Below, piece after piece: positions 29,565 to 46,422 of a stretch of DNA of 64,000 nt. The notes beneath the pieces are model-generated. The model searched no databases and was not told the DNA's origin. It worked only from the letters and a program-made list of their open reading frames with translations. Source of the stretch: a virus (Duplodnaviria; Caudoviricetes); the IMG/VR virus record IMGVR_UViG_3300029305_003084, one strand, 5' to 3'. The translations under genes were made by a program, and so were the position numbers. Within the stretch, counting starts at the first letter, position 1. Each line of letters opens with the position of its first letter.

Positions 29565-30686
29565 TTAGTCATCATATCTACTAAATAAATCATCTAGATC
29601 TAAATCAGATGTACTATTTTCTGACATTCTTAGATCTTTAATTTTATCTGTTGTAATATTCCCTAAGATAGAACTTTCTTTTACTTTTGAAAGTTCACTT
29701 ACAGATTCTTCAATTCTTTGAACAATCTTCTTTAATCTATCATCAGGTACAGATAGACCTGATACAATTAACATGATACGTTGAGCCTCATCGTTTCCAG
29801 CAATATAGGTATGCTGATAACCCTCAACAGGTTCTCCAATAAATTCTTTAATTTTTAGCATGTTATCATTAAACATACCATTCATTTTTTCATTGAGATT
29901 AGTAATAACACCCATTCGTTTTACAATCTTGTCTCTATCGAGTTCAACATTTGTAGATACATTCTTAATCACGTTTAGAAGTGTATCTTCGATTGTACTA
30001 TCATCAAAATCCTTTTCTTTAATATCAGATAGAATATATAATGCTAATCTACCAGGTGTTTCAAAGAATCTTAACATATCTTTTTCATCGATAGAATTAT
30101 ATGGGGTGGGATATAGATAATCTCCTCGTAGTACACTAATAGCATCAACAATTTCTTCATTAATAGATTTCATCATTTCTGGTGAAGATAAACTAGCTCT
30201 TTTATTATTGTCATATGCCATATATACTACATTAGGCAAGAACTTATTTACTTCATTTAAATAATCTAAAGAATTTTGTTGTGCTGCTACAGATTCAGCA
30301 ATGGGAGGATAAACTTCAATCAAAATAAATTTTTTACTCTGAAATTTTCTACTCAGAATATCTACCATAACAGGAGCCATACCAGAACCAGTACCGCCAC
30401 CTGTACTTGAGATGACAAATACTACATCATTTGATTCAATATGATCAATAAATTTTTCCTGTTCTAATAATCTCTTGATATGAAGTTTAATAAAATTGCG
30501 TGCTTCTTCTCTGTTCTTACCGGCACCAGTTTGGTCACCAACCACTATCTTAGTTACATTTTTAATATTAACTAGATCATTCGCTGAAGAATTAATAGCT
30601 ACACCTTTGATATTATATTTTTGCATAGCTAAATCCGCAATTTGTCCACCACAGTTACCAATTCCGATTGTGCAAACATTAATCAT
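29565..30686 (-). CDS. Tubulin/FtsZ-family GTPase (PhuZ/TubZ-like)
   Basis: IGIGNCGGQ, GAGKNREEA, GGGTGSG signature, SIDEKDM T7-like loop, acidic C-tail. Confidence 0.92.
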   Translation of the reverse strand: MINVCTIGIGNCGGQIADLAMQKYNIKGVAINSSANDLVNIKNVTKIVVGDQTGAGKNREEARNFIKLHIKRLLEQEKFIDHIESNDVVFVISSTGGGTGSGMAPVMVDILSRKFQSKKFILIEVYPPIAESVAAQQNSLDYLNEVNKFLPNVVYMAYDNNKRASLSSPEMMKSINEEIVDAISVLRGDYLYPTPYNSIDEKDMLRFFETPGRLALYILSDIKEKDFDDSTIEDTLLNVIKNVSTNVELDRDKIVKRMGVITNLNEKMNGMFNDNMLKIKEFIGEPVEGYQHTYIAGNDEAQRIMLIVSGLSVPDDRLKKIVQRIEESVSELSKVKESSILGNITTDKIKDLRMSENSTSDLDLDDLFSRYDD

Positions 30687-30960: not shown

Positions 30961-32169
30961 ATGTTAGACGTTAATCCCTTCAAAGTTGGCAACGTGTATT
31001 TTTGTAAGATATATGGCAAGACCAACGTCATGACCTATAACAAAAGTCGTCCGGTTCTTATAGTCAGTACAGTGGCTTTAAGTGATGGTGCAGTTATGGT
31101 TGCTCCTATTACATCTAGAAAAGATAAGAATGGTATTAAGTGCAAGTTAAAGGATGATTGCGTTTCGACAATCGCAGTTGAAAGAATGATGCCAGTGAAT
31201 ATTAATAACTTAACTCGATTCATTGGTAACATTAGTGATAATATCATGACTGAAGTTAGACACGCAATAAACATCATGTTTAATGGTGGTTCCAAAGAAG
31301 ATATGAATAAGTACTTCCCTTTCAGAACGAAGTATAATGTTCATGTAACAGAAGGCCCTAAGAACATCTTTATCGATAGTAGTGAACCTATGAATATTAC
31401 TTCTGATGATGACCACATTAATGATGAAGTGTTCGATACTGAGCATATTTTTATGGTTACGGAACAACGTATTATTGACAATGACCCCGTAATTGTCACT
31501 ATTGGTGATTCTGATAATGTCCCTGATTCTGAAACCCTCCTTGAACCTGAATCCACATCCGATCCCGTAGCTATCTTTGACGACCCCAATCCTGAAACCA
31601 GCCCCGAACCCACAGATATCTCTGAGCATGAAATCCTTCCAAACCCTGAGGTCATGATTAATCTGGAAAAGATTAATCATAAACCTTTGATTAAGACTCA
31701 GACTTATACAACAATCATGGATATTATCAATGAGGGTAATATCATGAGTTGTGAAGATGTTATTAAAAGTTTCAAATTTAAACAGCTTAGTTCTCGTATG
31801 AATCAGTATGAGAAACATTACCGTGATATTATTATCACCGGTACTATTAGAGGATTACCGATATCTGATATATATAAGCTGATCGAAACTGGAACTATTA
31901 GTTCTGATTTCTTCAACATCGATAAGCCGTTCACTGTTAAAAAATCTAAGGTATTTACTGTAGATGAAAACATGAATGAACTTATTGAGGAAGGTCATAG
32001 GACTAAGCCTAATAAAAGAGGATATGTGAAAATTTCTACATTATCAGATGATGATCGTCTGTGGATTATTAATGCTGACGTACATGATATTGCAAACAAA
32101 TTTAATGTTGCGATATCCACAGCATACAGTTACAAAGCAAAAGTACGCAATTTACTTGGTGTGCAGTAA
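30961..32169 (+). CDS. PemK/MazF-like domain protein with long C-terminal extension
   Basis: GNVYF...KSRPVLIVS...VMVAPITS...STIAVERMMPV...L.RFIGNISD.IM.EV..AI. Confidence 0.75.
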   Translation: MLDVNPFKVGNVYFCKIYGKTNVMTYNKSRPVLIVSTVALSDGAVMVAPITSRKDKNGIKCKLKDDCVSTIAVERMMPVNINNLTRFIGNISDNIMTEVRHAINIMFNGGSKEDMNKYFPFRTKYNVHVTEGPKNIFIDSSEPMNITSDDDHINDEVFDTEHIFMVTEQRIIDNDPVIVTIGDSDNVPDSETLLEPESTSDPVAIFDDPNPETSPEPTDISEHEILPNPEVMINLEKINHKPLIKTQTYTTIMDIINEGNIMSCEDVIKSFKFKQLSSRMNQYEKHYRDIIITGTIRGLPISDIYKLIETGTISSDFFNIDKPFTVKKSKVFTVDENMNELIEEGHRTKPNKRGYVKISTLSDDDRLWIINADVHDIANKFNVAISTAYSYKAKVRNLLGVQ

Positions 32170-32312
32170 TTAAAAATAAGGGTAAATCTAATTAGATTTA
32201 CCCTTATTTTTTTCTATAATCCAATCGTTTTATCAAAAATTTCAAATATATATTATAGTAATAATAGTAAAGAAATAATTTACTATAATTTATGAAAGGA
32301 GTTTAATTAAAC

Positions 32313-33062
32313 ATGTTAGACCTAAATCCCTATAAGAAAGGATCAGTATTTTTCGCAAAAATTCCAAAGTCTAATGATGACTGGCCTCTTATGCAAAAAA
32401 ATCGTCCTGTAGTAGTTTTAAATGAAATCAATACATCGTATGGAAAAGTATTTGTTGCACCAATTACTACAAGACCAAACAAAAATGGCGTACCAGTCAA
32501 ATTAGAAGAAAAAGTCGATTCTACAATTTTAATTGATTATGCATTTCCCATTTTTGTAAAACATCTACATACATATTTAGGATCATTATCCGATTCAAAA
32601 ATGAGAGAAGTATGTTATGCTTTTGACATTTTCATGGGTAATATAGATGCATCTGAAGAAGATATTAAAAAATATTTTCCTAACCAATCAATTTATAATG
32701 TAGATATCGGACTAACAAAAGAATATAATATTCCCGTATCGTCTATTCAATCTCCAACCACACATACCCCATTACCTACAATACATACAATATCTGACCC
32801 CATTATTTTATCACCAAATGAAATAACAGAACTTCATGAAATTATTGAAAATGTCCCCGTTAACCTAGCACCAGAACCTATTGATAAACCTAAGCAAAAT
32901 CGAAAAGGTAGAGTTAAGTTTCCTAGTTTTAATACAATGTCTAGAGAAGAATTGTCCTGGTTTGCTAATTCTACTCCAGAAGCAATTGTTGCAGAATATG
33001 GTTGTTGTAAAGGAACTGCTGTCAAAAAGAAGAAACAAGCAACTGAAAAACTCAAGAGGTAA
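32313..33062 (+). CDS. PemK/MazF-like domain protein, tandem paralog
   Basis: KGSVFF...QKNRPVVVL...VFVAPITT...LGSLSDSKMREV; shares MLDxNP start and KKYFP..YNV with upstream gene. Confidence 0.75.
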   Translation: MLDLNPYKKGSVFFAKIPKSNDDWPLMQKNRPVVVLNEINTSYGKVFVAPITTRPNKNGVPVKLEEKVDSTILIDYAFPIFVKHLHTYLGSLSDSKMREVCYAFDIFMGNIDASEEDIKKYFPNQSIYNVDIGLTKEYNIPVSSIQSPTTHTPLPTIHTISDPIILSPNEITELHEIIENVPVNLAPEPIDKPKQNRKGRVKFPSFNTMSREELSWFANSTPEAIVAEYGCCKGTAVKKKKQATEKLKR

Positions 33063-34160: not shown

Positions 34161-34188
34161 ATAATATAATTATAAAGGAGCATTAATT

Positions 34189-34500
34189 ATGAACATCAAC
34201 GATTTTGCTAGAACTACTGTAAACATGGATAATTATTTTAGTCCTCCTGAAATTATTGAAAATGCATTAGATAATAAGCACATTTGGATTAAATTTAATA
34301 TTATTCCGAATATTAGTAGATTTCATATCATTAAGCTTGTAACTGAGAACAGCGGTCCTCTGTTATTAGGAATGAATTATGCATTATGTCAAAGATTTAA
34401 TTTAGAATATATGCAGGATTGGCCTATCATGAATTTCCATGTCACCGATACTGAATTTGGTGATAAGGATGTCACTTTTAAGTTAATTCAAACTAACTAA
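34189..34500 (+). CDS. Hypothetical protein; putative target of the 42.7-kb antisense RNA
   Basis: RBS AAAGGAG; ORF 103 aa. Confidence 0.7.
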   Translation: MNINDFARTTVNMDNYFSPPEIIENALDNKHIWIKFNIIPNISRFHIIKLVTENSGPLLLGMNYALCQRFNLEYMQDWPIMNFHVTDTEFGDKDVTFKLIQTN

Positions 34501-34554
34501 AATAACTAATAAAGGGTATGTTTCATACATACCCTTTATTTTTTTAATAAATAT

Positions 34555-34572
34555 TTCAATTATATATTATAT
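34555..34572 (+). promoter_or_regulatory. Representative early-type promoter (A/T)TATATATTAT (about 15 copies)
   Basis: Also at about 30843, 32243, 38682, 43283, 46768 (+) and about 1775, 3165, 6690, 7860, 12805, 17510, 20445, 22040, 25705, 30745 (-). Confidence 0.7.
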
Positions 34573-40418: not shown

Positions 40419-41600
40419 TTGGTGATATTAATGAATTTAGAATTAACCAATCAACAAAAAGAAGCTTTAAATAAAGCAAAAAACTGGTGGAAAACCAAAT
40501 ATAAACAAACATTTGAAATTAGTGGAATTGCTGGATCAGGTAAGACTACTATTGTATATAGTTTAATCGAATCAATCGGATTAAAACATGATGAAGTTTT
40601 ATTTATGGCATTTGTAGGTAAAGCTACATTGGCATTAGCTCGAAAGGGTAATTATGCACAAACTATTCATAGTACAATATATGATTTTTCAAAAAAAGTT
40701 AATAAATCAATAAGTAAAATTGATTTAGAAAATGAAAAAATTAAATATGATATTGTATTCACTAAAAAAGATCGTTTACCTAAAAATATAAAATTATTAG
40801 TCGTTGATGAAGCTGGTATGGTATCTGAAAGTATTGCTAGAGATATTCTCTCATATGATATTCCGGTAATTGCATTAGGTGATAATAATCAGCTTGATCC
40901 AGTTTTTGGTGAACGATATTTTCTTAAAAATCCTGATATCACATTAACAGAACCTATGAGACAGGCATTAGATTCTCCTATTATATATTTAGCTCAGCAG
41001 GCATTGAAGGGAAAATATATTAAACGCGGAAATTACAATAATGAGTGTTTTGTTATTGACAAAAGTATGATTACTGATAATATGTTAATAAAATCAGATA
41101 TTGTATTATGTGGTACAAATAAAATGCGACATAAATTAAATAAGCAAATTAGAGAAGATATATTAAAAATAGATAATGATTTACCTGTTATTGGAGATAA
41201 ATTAATATGTAGAAAAAATAATTGGAGACAGTCTATTGATAATAATATATTTTTAATTAATGGAATGGTAGGATACGTCGATGATATTTATCTAGAATCT
41301 TATAAAAATGGTTCTATCAATATAGATTTTAGACCAGATTTTTTAGATGATGAATATTTTGATAATATACGTATTGACCTTAACCATATTAAAAATAGTT
41401 CTGGTCCAACATCATATAATCGGTTTAATAAAAGTAATGTATTTGAATATGGTTATGCAATAACGGTACATTTATCTCAAGGTTCTGAATGGGATAAAGT
41501 ATTTTTATATGATGATTGTTATGGTAGTAATGATTATAGACGAAAATTATTATATACAGCAATTACTAGATCAAAAAAGAATTTAATAATTGCAATGTAA
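40419..41600 (+). CDS. RecD/Dda-like SF1B helicase
   Basis: SGIAGSGKTT, TIHS, VVDEAGM, LGDNNQL, MRQ, YAITVHLSQGSEW, LYTAITR. Confidence 0.92.
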   Translation: MVILMNLELTNQQKEALNKAKNWWKTKYKQTFEISGIAGSGKTTIVYSLIESIGLKHDEVLFMAFVGKATLALARKGNYAQTIHSTIYDFSKKVNKSISKIDLENEKIKYDIVFTKKDRLPKNIKLLVVDEAGMVSESIARDILSYDIPVIALGDNNQLDPVFGERYFLKNPDITLTEPMRQALDSPIIYLAQQALKGKYIKRGNYNNECFVIDKSMITDNMLIKSDIVLCGTNKMRHKLNKQIREDILKIDNDLPVIGDKLICRKNNWRQSIDNNIFLINGMVGYVDDIYLESYKNGSINIDFRPDFLDDEYFDNIRIDLNHIKNSSGPTSYNRFNKSNVFEYGYAITVHLSQGSEWDKVFLYDDCYGSNDYRRKLLYTAITRSKKNLIIAM

Positions 41601-41692
41601 TAAATATTATATAAAATATATAACAAAATTATAAATGAGTATCGGAGAGGACTGATACTTAAAATTTATATTTATTTAGGAGGAATTAGATT

Positions 41693-41980
41693 ATGCTAAA
41701 TCTAACTTACTACATCCCCGAAATTTGGGACATTGGTACTGAAAATGGTGTAGATATTGGTGTTGCTCGTGACATGTTTATCTGCAACCTAAACTTTGGT
41801 AAGGAAATCTATGGTGGTGCAAATCTAGACTATGCTAAGCTAGGTGCAGAGTGGCGTGCAATGCCCTATATGGAGCAGCATCGTGAGAGAGTTGAGTATA
41901 ACGCATTTACTCAGAAGAAGAATTACAACACCATGGTTAAGCTATATGCTGCCGGCAATCGTGCTGCAATGCGTAAGTAA
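41693..41980 (+). CDS. Small highly expressed late protein
   Basis: Late promoter 41622, AGGAGG RBS, biased codons. Confidence 0.75.
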   Translation: MLNLTYYIPEIWDIGTENGVDIGVARDMFICNLNFGKEIYGGANLDYAKLGAEWRAMPYMEQHRERVEYNAFTQKKNYNTMVKLYAAGNRAAMRK

Positions 41981-42054
41981 TTTTTTTTAATATTCATGAG
42001 GAATCTATGTATATCATAGATTCCTCTTTTATTTTTATTTAAAGGAATGATAAT

Positions 42055-42204
42055 ATGTTAAAAACTGCTAGTAAATTTCTACAACCTATTAGTGATCGAA
42101 ACACTAGAATTGCAACATACACACAAAAAGAAAAAATTGAGTATATTAAAGAAAAATATAATTTAACACATGGTAAAGGAAAGAGAAAACGTAAATATAA
42201 ATGA
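42055..42204 (+). CDS. Small basic protein (49 aa)
   Basis: Manual translation MLKTASKFLQ...HGKGKRKRKYK; RBS AAAGGA. Confidence 0.55.
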   Translation: MLKTASKFLQPISDRNTRIATYTQKEKIEYIKEKYNLTHGKGKRKRKYK

Positions 42205-42234
42205 AAAAACAATTCATTAATAGTTTATAAAGAA

Positions 42235-42651
42235 ATGAGGTATATTTATATGGATTTTAATATCTTTGAGTATATTGAAGAATCTGTAGAATTCTTTGAT
42301 GATTTTGAGTTAGCTGATGAATCTGCATTTATGGAGTGGATGGAACTACCATCTAATAAAAAAGTAAAGACAGCAAAAAGATTATTATCAGAAGCTAAAC
42401 GTGAATCCAATAAAAAGAAAGCGGAGCAGGCAATTAAACTATTAAAAGAAGTTAGAAAAGAGGCAGAATTAATTGACGACGATGGTGTGCTTGCAACATT
42501 AGTTCGTTTATTTATTGAACCTTGGCCTATGCTTGTCGGTGAATGGATAAGTGCAGGTAAACTTACTTTCCGTGAACTAAGTAGATCTCAGGCATTAAAA
42601 TATATCGATAATACCATTAAAAGTGCAGAAAGATTTAAAAATAAATTATAA
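42235..42651 (+). CDS. Hypothetical, possible virion head protein with acidic propeptide
   Basis: Late promoter 42208; N-terminal EYIEES/ADES/FMEW acidic stretch. Confidence 0.65.
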   Translation: MRYIYMDFNIFEYIEESVEFFDDFELADESAFMEWMELPSNKKVKTAKRLLSEAKRESNKKKAEQAIKLLKEVRKEAELIDDDGVLATLVRLFIEPWPMLVGEWISAGKLTFRELSRSQALKYIDNTIKSAERFKNKL

Positions 42652-42685
42652 TTAAATTATTTTTAATTTATATAACATATTATTA

Positions 42686-42783
42686 ATCGACGATATGGTT
42701 TCGGTCATAACATGTTCATAAGAAATGCTCCTTTATTTTCCCTATTAGTAATATATCTTATATTACTAATAGGGAATAATTTT
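42686..42783 (+). ncRNA. Candidate trans-acting antisense sRNA 1
   Basis: AACA-N6-TA at 42674, terminator 42738-42783, 42712-42736 complementary (23/25) to 34172-34196. Confidence 0.55.
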
Positions 42784-42798
42784 ATAAACATTATAGTA

Positions 42799-42915
42799 AG
42801 TGGTGTTGGAACAATTTGTAGTGTGAATGGTACTGACGTACAAACATAATGTGTGGTCTATCTCCTTTTAATATGTTGGTATTGGTGAATTATTTTCACC
42901 AATACCAATAATTAT
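42799..42915 (+). ncRNA. Candidate sRNA 2 with anti-SD
   Basis: AACA-N6-TA at 42787, ACAT...TCTCCTTTT, hairpin 42876-42909, no + strand ORF with RBS. Confidence 0.4.
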
Positions 42916-42966
42916 TGCATTTTTATTATTCATATAACATTTAATTAAAAATACGATATAGAAAGG

Positions 42967-43260
42967 GTGATAATAATTATGACCGGAGATGAATTTAAAG
43001 CTATTGTAAATAAGTATGGTGAAGAGAATATCATTGGTATCGGTTATGATAACTCTGCAGGTCATACATTCCCTTATGTTGGAATGTTCACATTAGCCAA
43101 TAACTATATTGAAGATATTCAGTGTCTAAAATTCATTGAATATGATATGTATGGTAATCCTTTTCATACTATCAAACATGTAGAAAATATCCAGTCCATT
43201 ATTGTTAAAGATGATAACGTTGATCGACTGAAATATGATTATGATCATATTCGCGGTTAA
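42967..43260 (+). CDS. Hypothetical late protein (start probably MTGDE)
   Basis: Late promoter 42936, RBS GAAAGGGTG. Confidence 0.7.
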   Translation: MIIIMTGDEFKAIVNKYGEENIIGIGYDNSAGHTFPYVGMFTLANNYIEDIQCLKFIEYDMYGNPFHTIKHVENIQSIIVKDDNVDRLKYDYDHIRG

Positions 43261-43350
43261 TTAAAAAAATCAAAAGATATTTCAATTATATATTATAGTA
43301 GTATCAACAGAGAAGTAAACAACTTTAATGTTGATATATTAAATTTAATT

Positions 43351-43851
43351 TTGGAGGTATTAATAATAATGGGTAAGAAGAAGAACAATGATTTTACTCC
43401 TATGAGCGATCTGATGGAGGAAAAGAAGAAGCTTGAGAAGAAGATGGGTAAGATTTCTATTCCTTGTTCTCATACCAATGATAATGGTAAAGTCAAGTTT
43501 GATTTTCTTGGCAAGGGCAATCTAGTTCGTTGTAAGAAGTGTGGTTGTACTTTCGATTTTGGTACAATCGATCCTGATGATCTGCATAAGGCAGTTCTAA
43601 CTGTTCATAATGCAATTAACCAGGTCAAGTCCATGACTGATGATCCTAATAGAGAAGCTGGTGTAATTAATACGCTAGGTAATCTGGATTATAACATGAA
43701 GGAAATGGAAGAACTTTATCGTAAGACTGTCTTTAATTATCACAAGGGTGGTAAGAAGAAGAAGAACCGTAAGAACAATGATTTTGGTCAGTATGGTTAT
43801 AACAATATCGATTTCATTGGTAATAAGCCTAAGAAGAATAAGTATTATTAA
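43351..43851 (+). CDS. Hypothetical Zn-finger-like basic protein
   Basis: CSH...CKKC, early promoter at about 43283, GGAGG RBS. Confidence 0.75.
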   Translation: MEVLIIMGKKKNNDFTPMSDLMEEKKKLEKKMGKISIPCSHTNDNGKVKFDFLGKGNLVRCKKCGCTFDFGTIDPDDLHKAVLTVHNAINQVKSMTDDPNREAGVINTLGNLDYNMKEMEELYRKTVFNYHKGGKKKKNRKNNDFGQYGYNNIDFIGNKPKKNKYY

Positions 43852-44043
43852 TCGATAATAAAGTTTTAATTTTCTTCGAAGAACATTAAATGTAAATATA
43901 GAGAAGTATACTTTCGAGTATACTTCTCTATATATTTTTTTAAAATCATTTTAAAAATTTAGTAGAGTTACTACTCTAGTAAATATTTATTATACCCTTA
44001 ACAATATATTAGAGTTTAATAAATGTATTGGAGGCGAATCTGA

Positions 44044-46422
44044 TTGAGCGAGATTAATAAATATATCGATGATAAAATTGAACACATCGAATCAGATTTA
44101 GATAAAATTGCAACTAAGAGTGGCATGTATATTGGTGCTCTTGGAAATCAGGGTGCTTTACACTTATGTAAAGAATTAATTAATAATGGTATTGATGAAT
44201 GTATTAATACACAGAGTCCTGCAAATACTATTGAAATATTCTTAGATGAAGGTGAGAACACTATTACTGTTAGTGACAATGGTCGTGGTATTCCAGAAGA
44301 ATCTCTAGAGATTGTATGTACAACATTACAGTCTGGTAGTAAATTTACTAGAACTGGATATGGTGGTACAAGTGCTGGTGAAAACGGCGTTGGTATGACT
44401 GCATGTAATGCACTATCATCTATTTTTGAAATTAACTCTTATCGATATGGTAATAAACATAAAATTCGATTTGAGGAACATACAAAAACAGAGTTTAAAA
44501 CCACAAAAATTAAATCATCTGATAGACATGGTACTACAGTGATTATGAAACCAAACCCAAAATATTTAGGTTCAAATTGTGATATCATTGCAGATGATCT
44601 AATGGAATGGTTAGATAAAATATCTTATTTAATCCCTTCTGATATTATTATTAAGTTAGCTATTAAAAAGAAGGGTAAAGAATCTCTAGTTAATAAGAAA
44701 TATTCTAATAAATATGGTCTTTATGATTTAGTTAAAAAGACTTGTAATAAATCATTACTTGATCCTGTTCATTTTAAACGTGATATGAAAATGAAAGAAC
44801 AAGTTGGTGATGAAGTAATAGATAGATTTATGGGTATTGAAGTTGCTTTGACTTATGATTCAACTGCATCTGAATTTGATGGTATCTCATTCTGTAATTT
44901 CATTCATACTGTAGATAATGGTGTACATCTAGATGCTTGTAAAACGGCAACTTTACAATATTTAACAAAACAGACTAAAGATGCATTAAGTGAAAGAGAA
45001 TCTAAGAAAATTGATATTACTTTCGCAGATGCTTCTCAGGGATTGTATTTAGCAATTTATCTGTGTACTGATTTTCAGCCCAATTTCAATTCACAGGCTA
45101 AAGCAAAATTAACATCTAATGAGTTCTTTAAACCCATCAGAGATCTTACTTATAGAGCTCTTAATGATTATTTTAAAGATAATCAAAAAGATCTTAAAAA
45201 GATTATTGATAAAATTAAAACAAATGCTAAAGCAAGAATTGAATCTACTAAGGTTAGAAATTCTGTTATTCGTGGAGAAACCAATAACTTTGCAGAATTT
45301 CTAATGGAAAATTTCATTCCTGCAAATGATAGAAGTAAAAATGGATATCGAGAACTTATCATTTTAGAAGGACGAAGTGCACGAGGTACTGCAGTTAGTG
45401 GTAGATTTGATAGAAATACACAGGCTATTTTTAGCATTAGAGGTGTTCCTCTAAATTCTTTTAATACTAGTCTCGATAAAGTCTTGCTGAATGATGAGTT
45501 TAAATCGTTAACACAAATTTTAGGATGTAATATTGGTAGTAGATTTGATATTAGTAAATTAAAGTATGACAAAATTATACTGCTTGCTGACGCAGATTCT
45601 GATGGCTATAATATTACTTCTTTATTATGTGCATTCTTTTTAACTCACTTACCTGAAATTATTAAAGATGGTAGATTATATAAATCAGTATCTCCTCTTT
45701 ATAGAATTAAGAGTAAATATAAAGAATTTATTCTTAATAAGAAAGAGTATATTCAGATTTATGAAAAACATATTAGAGAAAATCTGATTATTGAAGATCC
45801 GGATTCTAATAAAGTATATAATAAAGAAGAAATGCAAGAATTACTAATGATAACTAAAGGTTATTTAGATGAATTATTACGATTAAGTAATCATTTAGTT
45901 ATTGACTATACAATTCTAGAATATTTATTAATTCATAGGCATGAAAAGAATTTCTATAAGAATTTCAAAAAGAAATTCCCTGAATTAGAAATTGATGATG
46001 ATAATGTATTAACAGGTATTTATGAAGGTAAATATCAAATTTTGATTATGGATAAATTATTTGAAAAGAGAATTATGTCTTTAGAAAAATTTATCATAAA
46101 TCAAAAAGAAACTACAATGTACTTTAAAGTAAGAGATAGAAATGGTACTGAATATGGTACATTGACACTTGGACAATTCTTAGTTGTTTGTCAAAAATAT
46201 CAACCTATCATTAAGACTCGTTATAAGGGTGTTGGCGAGTTAAATGCGAATGATTTAAGAGATAATACTCTTGATCCTAGAAATCGTATGTTGATTAGAC
46301 TAACAATTGATGATATTGAAAAAGAGTTGGAACAGTTTAATATTTTGCATGGTGATAATGCAGATGCAAGAAAATTACTAATGCAAAATTATAAGATTGA
46401 CAGAGAAGAATTAGATAACTAA
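44044..46422 (+). CDS. gyrB: Type II topoisomerase subunit B (GyrB/ParE-like)
   Basis: ELINNGIDE, DNGRGIP, GENGVG, EGRSA, DADSDG, RYKGVGE. Confidence 0.93.
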   Translation: MSEINKYIDDKIEHIESDLDKIATKSGMYIGALGNQGALHLCKELINNGIDECINTQSPANTIEIFLDEGENTITVSDNGRGIPEESLEIVCTTLQSGSKFTRTGYGGTSAGENGVGMTACNALSSIFEINSYRYGNKHKIRFEEHTKTEFKTTKIKSSDRHGTTVIMKPNPKYLGSNCDIIADDLMEWLDKISYLIPSDIIIKLAIKKKGKESLVNKKYSNKYGLYDLVKKTCNKSLLDPVHFKRDMKMKEQVGDEVIDRFMGIEVALTYDSTASEFDGISFCNFIHTVDNGVHLDACKTATLQYLTKQTKDALSERESKKIDITFADASQGLYLAIYLCTDFQPNFNSQAKAKLTSNEFFKPIRDLTYRALNDYFKDNQKDLKKIIDKIKTNAKARIESTKVRNSVIRGETNNFAEFLMENFIPANDRSKNGYRELIILEGRSARGTAVSGRFDRNTQAIFSIRGVPLNSFNTSLDKVLLNDEFKSLTQILGCNIGSRFDISKLKYDKIILLADADSDGYNITSLLCAFFLTHLPEIIKDGRLYKSVSPLYRIKSKYKEFILNKKEYIQIYEKHIRENLIIEDPDSNKVYNKEEMQELLMITKGYLDELLRLSNHLVIDYTILEYLLIHRHEKNFYKNFKKKFPELEIDDDNVLTGIYEGKYQILIMDKLFEKRIMSLEKFIINQKETTMYFKVRDRNGTEYGTLTLGQFLVVCQKYQPIIKTRYKGVGELNANDLRDNTLDPRNRMLIRLTIDDIEKELEQFNILHGDNADARKLLMQNYKIDREELDN

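Follow-up and report, generated by a model that had tools for sequence, protein, structure and literature searches.

The 64,000 nucleotides analysed here, referred to as the window, correspond to bases 1-64000, in reverse complement, of one contig of 247,146 bp (28.8% G+C) that represents an uncultured jumbo phage of the gut with a genome of 247 kb. The genome carries two RNA polymerase beta-like genes and seven tRNA genes. The phage is most closely related to AR9, PBS1, and Staphylococcus phage S6; its topoisomerase, encoded at 44044-46422, is 29-31% identical to the enzymes of Bacillus phages AR9 and PBS1 and of jumbo phages resembling Staphylococcus phage S6. Near-identical DNA was found in animal faecal and bovine gut metagenomes. 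Upstream of ORF 42979, two short promoter-terminator units follow one another on the + strand, the first of which is predicted to encode a small RNA, designated sRNA1:

42661-42685, + strand: sRNA1 promoter, A/T-rich in its upstream part, with AACA (42674-42677) and TA (42684-42685) separated by 6 nt
42685-42785, + strand: sRNA1, a predicted non-coding transcript of about 100 nt, with no ORF that has a ribosome-binding site
42709-42720, + strand: a second AACA-N6-TA match, inside the sRNA1 unit
42712-42736, + strand: sRNA1 seed, a 25-nt segment complementary (23/25) to the ORF 34189 start region
42738-42786, + strand: sRNA1 intrinsic terminator, an 18-bp hairpin (42738-42776) with a U-rich tail
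42787-42918, + strand: sister unit 2, in which an AACA-N6-TA promoter is followed by a 75-nt body that terminates in TCTCCTTTTAATATG and by a 16-bp hairpin with a tail
42936-42981, + strand: a third promoter with the 5′ leader of ORF 42979, aligning locally with the sRNA1 promoter

In AR9, late promoters have the form AACA-(6N)-T(A/G), with the last base serving as the start site, and early promoters the form AAATATATATTAT-(6N)-G (PMC5312081). Bases 42674-42685 fit the late consensus as a motif match, so that A42685 is the predicted first transcribed base. The AACA-N6-TA promoter proposed at 42674 by an earlier, sequence-only reading of this DNA is thus present as a motif, and its 16-nt core, ATAACATATTATTAAT, is identical to the core located 9 nt upstream of tRNA-Ser(gct). 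Genome-wide, AACA-N6-TW was observed 57 times at 20-70 nt upstream of gene starts, compared to about 16 occurrences expected from its genome-wide frequency; on these counts, the AACA-N6-TA motif is a real promoter motif in the present phage. An extended form with a T-rich upstream part has five copies in the genome: besides those of the sRNA1 unit and ORF 42979, two precede tRNA-Ser genes and one precedes an ORF-free region of 0.8 kb.

The early promoter consensus in this phage, TTTCAA(A/T)TATATATTATA, is close to the AAATATATATTAT of AR9 and has about 34 copies genome-wide, pointing towards genes. Occurrences of TATAATATATAATTGAAA on the minus strand at 43297 and 34571 were considered as antisense early promoters and rejected by a tally of orientations: TATAATATATAATTGAAA is the reverse complement of the true early promoter, and both sites are therefore + strand promoters:

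43281-43297 and 34555-34571, + strand: early promoters, serving ORF 43351 and ORF 34599, respectively

Contigs from four bovine-gut metatranscriptome assemblies of one study (X11-X14) cover 41613-41973 and 43256-43771, corresponding to ORF 41693 (95 aa) and ORF 43351 (166 aa), the latter of which has both an early and a late promoter. They derive from a slightly diverged strain, in which one gene differs by 12 substitutions and 5 nt are missing at 43338. Over ORF 43351, three of the four contigs begin at 43315-43317, and the start predicted from the AACA at 43306 is 43317, a weak hint that the AR9-type start-site rule applies here. From 42685 to 42915, these contigs contain short scraps only, which run into unrelated sequence; an RNA of 100 nt is easily lost from such assemblies.

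In the centroid fold of the predicted sRNA1 transcript, the 5′ 53 nt are open, and the seed, which occupies RNA positions 28-52, is unpaired and stops one base short of the terminator hairpin (z = -3.9). The strong terminal hairpin described from the sequence alone was borne out, with 18 pairs and a 3-nt loop at 42738-42776 followed by TAATTTTATA; the tail 3′ of this hairpin reads UAAUUUUAU. The promoter match at 42709-42720 would give a shorter RNA containing only the anti-Shine-Dalgarno half of the seed and may be fortuitous. In a local alignment of 42658-42710 with 42918-42973, the sRNA1 promoter together with the first 25 transcribed bases proves to be a diverged copy of the ORF 42979 promoter and leader, and this copy no longer has the Shine-Dalgarno sequence. 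A search of 41500-44000 against all Rfam families, with E up to 10, returned no family for sRNA1 and no C4 match. The earlier statement that the unit has no + strand ORF needs qualification: a hydrophobic frame of 45 codons exists at 42712-42849, but it lacks a Shine-Dalgarno sequence and passes through the terminator and the next promoter, and it is therefore treated as spurious. On the minus strand, the seed reads as AAAGGAG, 8 nt, and ATG AAC ATG TTA TGA, encoding the 4-codon mini-ORF MNML. No early or late promoter motif was found on the minus strand of 42600-44000, so that this mirror-image start site has no predicted mRNA.

The sRNA1 seed, 42712-42736, is the reverse complement of 34172-34196 at 23 of 25 positions, with 8.5 kb between the sites. 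The partner site covers the start of a small gene:

34172-34196, + strand: target site, comprising AAAGGAG, an 8-nt spacer, and ATG AAC AT of ORF 34189 (Shine-Dalgarno to codon 3)
34189-34500, + strand: target gene ORF 34189, 103 aa, the last gene before the terminator at 34508-34540

The positions, sequences, and degree of complementarity given by the sequence-only reading were confirmed, and the match proved to be unique in the genome and higher than every control. A 25-mer search allowing up to three mismatches returned only 34172-34196 (+) and 42712-42736 (-, two mismatches), with no matches in 100 shuffles, and the best further copies in the rest of the 247-kb genome carry six mismatches. 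The 268 start regions, reversed to control for composition, matched 27 kb of intergenic DNA at no more than 21/25, and the closest of the 35,778 pairs formed by real start regions reached 22/25 in register. Read on the minus strand, the seed shares 23 bases with ORF 34189 and 19/25 with the next-best gene. A census of 25-mers with up to two mismatches recovered only two inverted pairs between start regions and intergenic DNA, the sRNA1 pair among them. On these sequence comparisons, a chance origin of the 23/25 match is unlikely.

The predicted duplex consists of 10 bp, a 2x2 internal loop, and 13 bp, with an energy of -29.1 kcal/mol; the two mismatches are adjacent and central, and, as A-G and A-A oppositions, are not wobble pairs. 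In the genome-wide target ranking that had been suggested as a check, ORF 34189 came first of 268 start regions as a partner of sRNA1. The target region is predicted to be unstructured (-3.8 kcal/mol, z = +1.1). The gene after the 34508-34540 terminator has its own early promoter, and no promoter driving ORF 34189 was identified. For the ORF 34189 protein, no Pfam or PHROG family was found, an atlas search returned nothing usable, and structure models were poor (single-sequence AlphaFold pLDDT 39). Its only database cluster is one of 100% identity, present on 15 contigs of near-identical strains, and its start region is invariant in seven contigs of other samples, including a strain that is about 2% diverged and comes from the same sample as L002.

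Relatives of the locus were gathered through homologues of the downstream 93-aa protein, and the percent identities attached to them below are protein-level values for that neighbour. A DNA search with the locus against a phage collection and IMG/VR gave no match and no close relative. The protein upstream of the sRNA1 unit has a sole relative, which is 99% identical and lies on a contig (L001) with 99.9% identical DNA. In L002 (97%), 42663-42970 is entirely identical and the upstream gene is heavily diverged up to 42662. The sRNA1 unit is missing or replaced in L003-L005 (83%), in which unit 2 is kept, and L009 (75%) has a homologue of unit 2 followed by a different unit with TTCTCCTT before its hairpin. 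In the 55-57% relatives, the intergenic region is about 150 nt in L006 and absent in L007, with no sRNA1 unit. Thus, the promoter-terminator units occupying this slot vary, and selection acts on at least one of them: the promoter, anti-Shine-Dalgarno segment, and hairpin of unit 2 are conserved in L003, L004, and L009, and two pairs of the hairpin are changed on both sides across relatives, indicating that such units are maintained with compensatory changes. The sRNA1 unit and ORF 34189 co-occur in two strains, and both seed and target are invariant in the available contigs. Seeds of unit B of L009 and unit 1′ of L003 gave only chance-level matches to start regions of the present phage, as did unit A of L009 to codons 2-6 of ORF 34189 (13/14).

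A third unit of the same build was located elsewhere in the genome:

L022:121-214, - strand: third unit, with a AACAATATTATAGG promoter, a 50-nt body containing CATATTCCGAAACCTCCAT (CAT-N10-CTCC), a 16-bp hairpin, and a T-run

Units 2 and 3 both have a CTCCTT motif 5′ of the hairpin. The present genome contains no long complement of unit 2 and no gene start complementary to the third unit.

A second element combining a start-site complement with a terminator was found behind a tRNA gene:

L020:247-353 (G000:C1 about 162046-162152), - strand: tRNA-Met trailer, with its pairing segment at L020:291-315(-)

The pairing segment begins 36 nt past tRNA-Met, ends 8 nt before a 15-bp terminator hairpin, and forms 24 Watson-Crick pairs and one G-U pair with L021:487-511(-), the start of an 84-aa gene belonging to a small YD-like paralogue family. 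The duplex of the matched stretches alone has an energy of -31.3 kcal/mol; in a ranking with a 41-nt seed, the 84-aa gene reached -34.1 kcal/mol versus -25.3 kcal/mol for the next gene, a gap of 9 kcal/mol. The borders of this pairing, -18 to +7, are nearly the same as those of the sRNA1 pair, -17 to +8. A minus-strand frame opening at the trailer site would extend across the tRNA in antisense. After the 84-aa gene, the best partner of the trailer is the start region of a 477-aa IS110/Nop-like (Tas-like) gene (18/19; L023; weak Pfam Transposase_20). A search for relatives anchored on the 3′ side of tRNA-Met returned unrelated phages only.

The best reading of these data, for which the sequence gives roughly even chances, is that the sRNA1 unit encodes a trans-acting antisense sRNA that silences ORF 34189. 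In this mechanism, the phage's own non-virion RNA polymerase would transcribe 42685-42785 from the AACA-N6-TA promoter and stop at the intrinsic terminator; by analogy with AR9, expression would be late. The single-stranded 25 nt just 5′ of the terminator would then base-pair with ORF 34189 from its Shine-Dalgarno sequence through the start codon into the first codons, occluding 30S binding and turning its translation off, and the last gene of a transcription unit would be silenced independently of its upstream neighbour. Transcription and timing of sRNA1, its pairing in the cell, and repression of ORF 34189 are what we infer from features seen directly in the DNA: the type of promoter, the terminator, a seed and a target that are both predicted to be open, the unique complementarity, the recurrence of the build in a second element, and an opposite strand predicted to be untranscribed. 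The sRNA anatomy proposed by the sequence-only reading (promoter, ORF-free unit, terminator, and exposed anti-start segment) is strengthened by the tRNA-type promoter core, the second independent element, and the conserved sister unit; that reading is partly supported overall, with its functional part putative. Counting against the sRNA are the youth and lineage specificity of the unit, the non-wobble mismatches, the same-sense likeness of two real gene starts described below, and the two sister units that have no long targets.

The strongest competitor, although somewhat improbable, is that the locus is a relic or by-product, in which a short stretch of a gene start, copied in inverted orientation, or else the stump left by a lost minus-strand gene, lies between a duplicated promoter and a terminator, so that the segment is possibly transcribed and its complementarity has no regulatory role. 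The perfect register of the minus-strand start region is as expected for such a stump, the unit is young, and its promoter and leader duplicate those of the neighbouring gene, suggesting that the locus is prone to rearrangement. In addition, two real genes have start regions that are alike in the same sense at 23 of 24 bases, indicating that near-identical start regions can arise without antisense function. However, the similarity between seed and target breaks off sharply at -17 and +8, with unrelated flanks and no residual likeness, and the minus strand has no promoter motif; a decayed minus-strand start, which had been named as a condition that would overturn the sRNA, is weakened by both observations even though an in-register start is indeed present there. 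Moreover, the tRNA-Met trailer is an independent element with nearly the same borders, placed directly upstream of a + strand terminator in a stable-RNA transcription unit, and two stumps with equal borders and placement would be hard to obtain by neutral decay.

Less probable again is a real small RNA, or a promoter-terminator insulator, with another role, such as a general anti-Shine-Dalgarno activity, a protein-binding RNA, or insulation between late genes, to which the ORF 34189 match would be incidental. Units 2 and 3, with the same build and the same CTCCTT element but no specific long target, point in this direction, as does the fact that unit 2 conserves only its promoter, short anti-Shine-Dalgarno segment, and hairpin among relatives. 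This explanation, though, leaves unaccounted for a 25-nt gene-specific complementarity that extends into the coding region and was found twice. Chance likeness of two A/T-rich sequences that both contain a Shine-Dalgarno-like motif is very improbable: a few 23/25 matches are expected, as an estimate from composition, in a 247-kb genome at 29% G+C, and the whole window was open to the first search, but the shuffles, the reversed and real start-region controls, and the next-best gene all fell short of 23/25, and placement in an orphan promoter-terminator unit would be an additional independent coincidence. Equally remote is a small protein gene. Both frames exist, and the one on the minus strand has a strong Shine-Dalgarno sequence, but it spans only 4 codons (18 with TGA read-through) and has no promoter motif. 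The + frame lacks a ribosome-binding site and extends over the terminator into the next promoter, and neither region is kept in the 83% relatives. A type I toxin-antitoxin system was also considered and rejected, as the hydrophobic 45-codon frame has no ribosome-binding site and spans the terminator, and ORF 34189 encodes 103 aa with no family.

Phage RNAs that act on translation start sites are known. The c4 antisense RNA of P1/P7 (Rfam RF01695) is a short phage RNA that prevents translation by pairing with a ribosome-binding region in an mRNA of the same phage; it comes from a temperate phage, is processed from the operon it controls, and adopts a conserved fold of its own. The proposed action of sRNA1 is the same antisense occlusion of a ribosome-binding site, but sRNA1, which belongs to a jumbo phage, has a promoter and a terminator of its own, is encoded 8.5 kb away from its proposed target, and has no Rfam match. 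In origin, the tRNA-Met trailer would resemble Escherichia coli 3′ETS-leuZ and the stable RNAs of the T4 tRNA cluster, in that it follows a tRNA and ends at the operon terminator. 3′ETS-leuZ sponges sRNAs rather than blocking an mRNA start site, and we know of no targets for the T4 tRNA-cluster RNAs. DicF, which acts on ftsZ, and other prophage trans-acting sRNAs are likewise encoded away from their targets, pair with the translation start, and block translation (PMC12197685); these RNAs have host-gene targets, are Hfq-linked in enterobacteria, and use short imperfect seeds, whereas a phage-gene target and a 25-nt complementarity are proposed for sRNA1. Thus, sRNA1 is set apart from c4 and DicF by its AR9-type promoter, its jumbo-phage origin, and its proposed single distant phage-gene target.

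Late transcription in AR9 includes the tRNA gene, and antisense RNAs arise from some of its late promoters; these late units share with sRNA1 the promoter consensus AACA-(6N)-T(A/G) (PMC5312081). The antisense RNAs reported for AR9 are cis-antisense to genes, however, and the cited part of that study makes no mention of a trans-encoded, start-site-directed RNA (PMC5312081). Synthetic antisense oligomers directed against jumbo-phage mRNAs also rely on antisense pairing but are man-made and added externally (PMC12571901). Few small regulatory RNAs of virulent phages have been described, and their functions are mostly unknown (PMC8244752). If the reading of sRNA1 as an antisense RNA is true, a jumbo phage would use transcripts of its own polymerase to silence some of its genes at the post-transcriptional level, adding a layer of gene timing, and the locus would show the birth of such RNAs by short inverted copying of a target site. 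A wider and more tentative proposal, which we hold to be doubtful at present, is that AR9-like jumbo phages keep a small, fast-turning-over set of RNAs made by the phage polymerase, consisting of cassettes and a tRNA trailer, each a reverse copy of about 25 nt of a target start placed 5′ of a terminator, for gene-by-gene translational shut-off of their own accessory genes. Given that the second-best partner of the trailer is the start of a Tas-like gene, RNA-guided systems could also come under such control.

Several further observations were made in the window and its relatives. The same-sense likeness of two gene starts mentioned above is between 42033-42057 and the start of an unrelated 359-aa gene (TTAAAGGAATGATA[A/T]TATGTTAAA), and could reflect a shared translational operator or a copied start-region module. 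In L001, the 198-aa JGI gene call at 989-1585 requires TGA to be read as Trp and fuses ORF 42055 with ORF 42235. A changed genetic code (TGA=W) was rejected because relatives call the two ORFs separately and long genes are intact under table 11; the fusion looks like a gene-caller artefact rather than recoding. At 43864-43948, a below-threshold Rfam match to ctRNA_pND324 (34 bits compared to a cut-off of 45) falls on the bidirectional terminator hairpin at 43896-43933 and is probably a mere hairpin resemblance. In the regions 30961-33062 and 29565-30686, two tandem PemK/MazF-like proteins, each with an early promoter, are encoded next to a tubulin-like (PhuZ-type) gene, the tubulin-like annotation being taken from Pfam marks on an identical contig. 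The 83% relatives carry an IS605 OrfB/TnpB-like (Cas12f1-like) gene between the helicase and an 83-aa ORF (L003:2295-3527 and L004:178-1410), which is absent from the present genome.

Two other regions may also give rise to RNAs. In L019 (G000:C1:204650-205900), an extended tRNA-type promoter, TTTATTATTTATATAACATAG, near position 107 is followed on its 3′ side by sequence of higher G+C content that extends for about 0.8 kb and contains no ORF reaching 60 aa; this ORF-free region, for which a search against Rfam with E up to 0.01 returned no family, may encode a large non-coding RNA. About 84.5 kb before the start of the window, two orphan AACATTATTTTAA(G/T) promoters converge at a distance of about 100 nt, flanked on one side by a terminator:

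window coordinates -84561 and -84460, + and - strand, respectively: facing orphan promoters

These promoters may form an overlapping antisense RNA pair.
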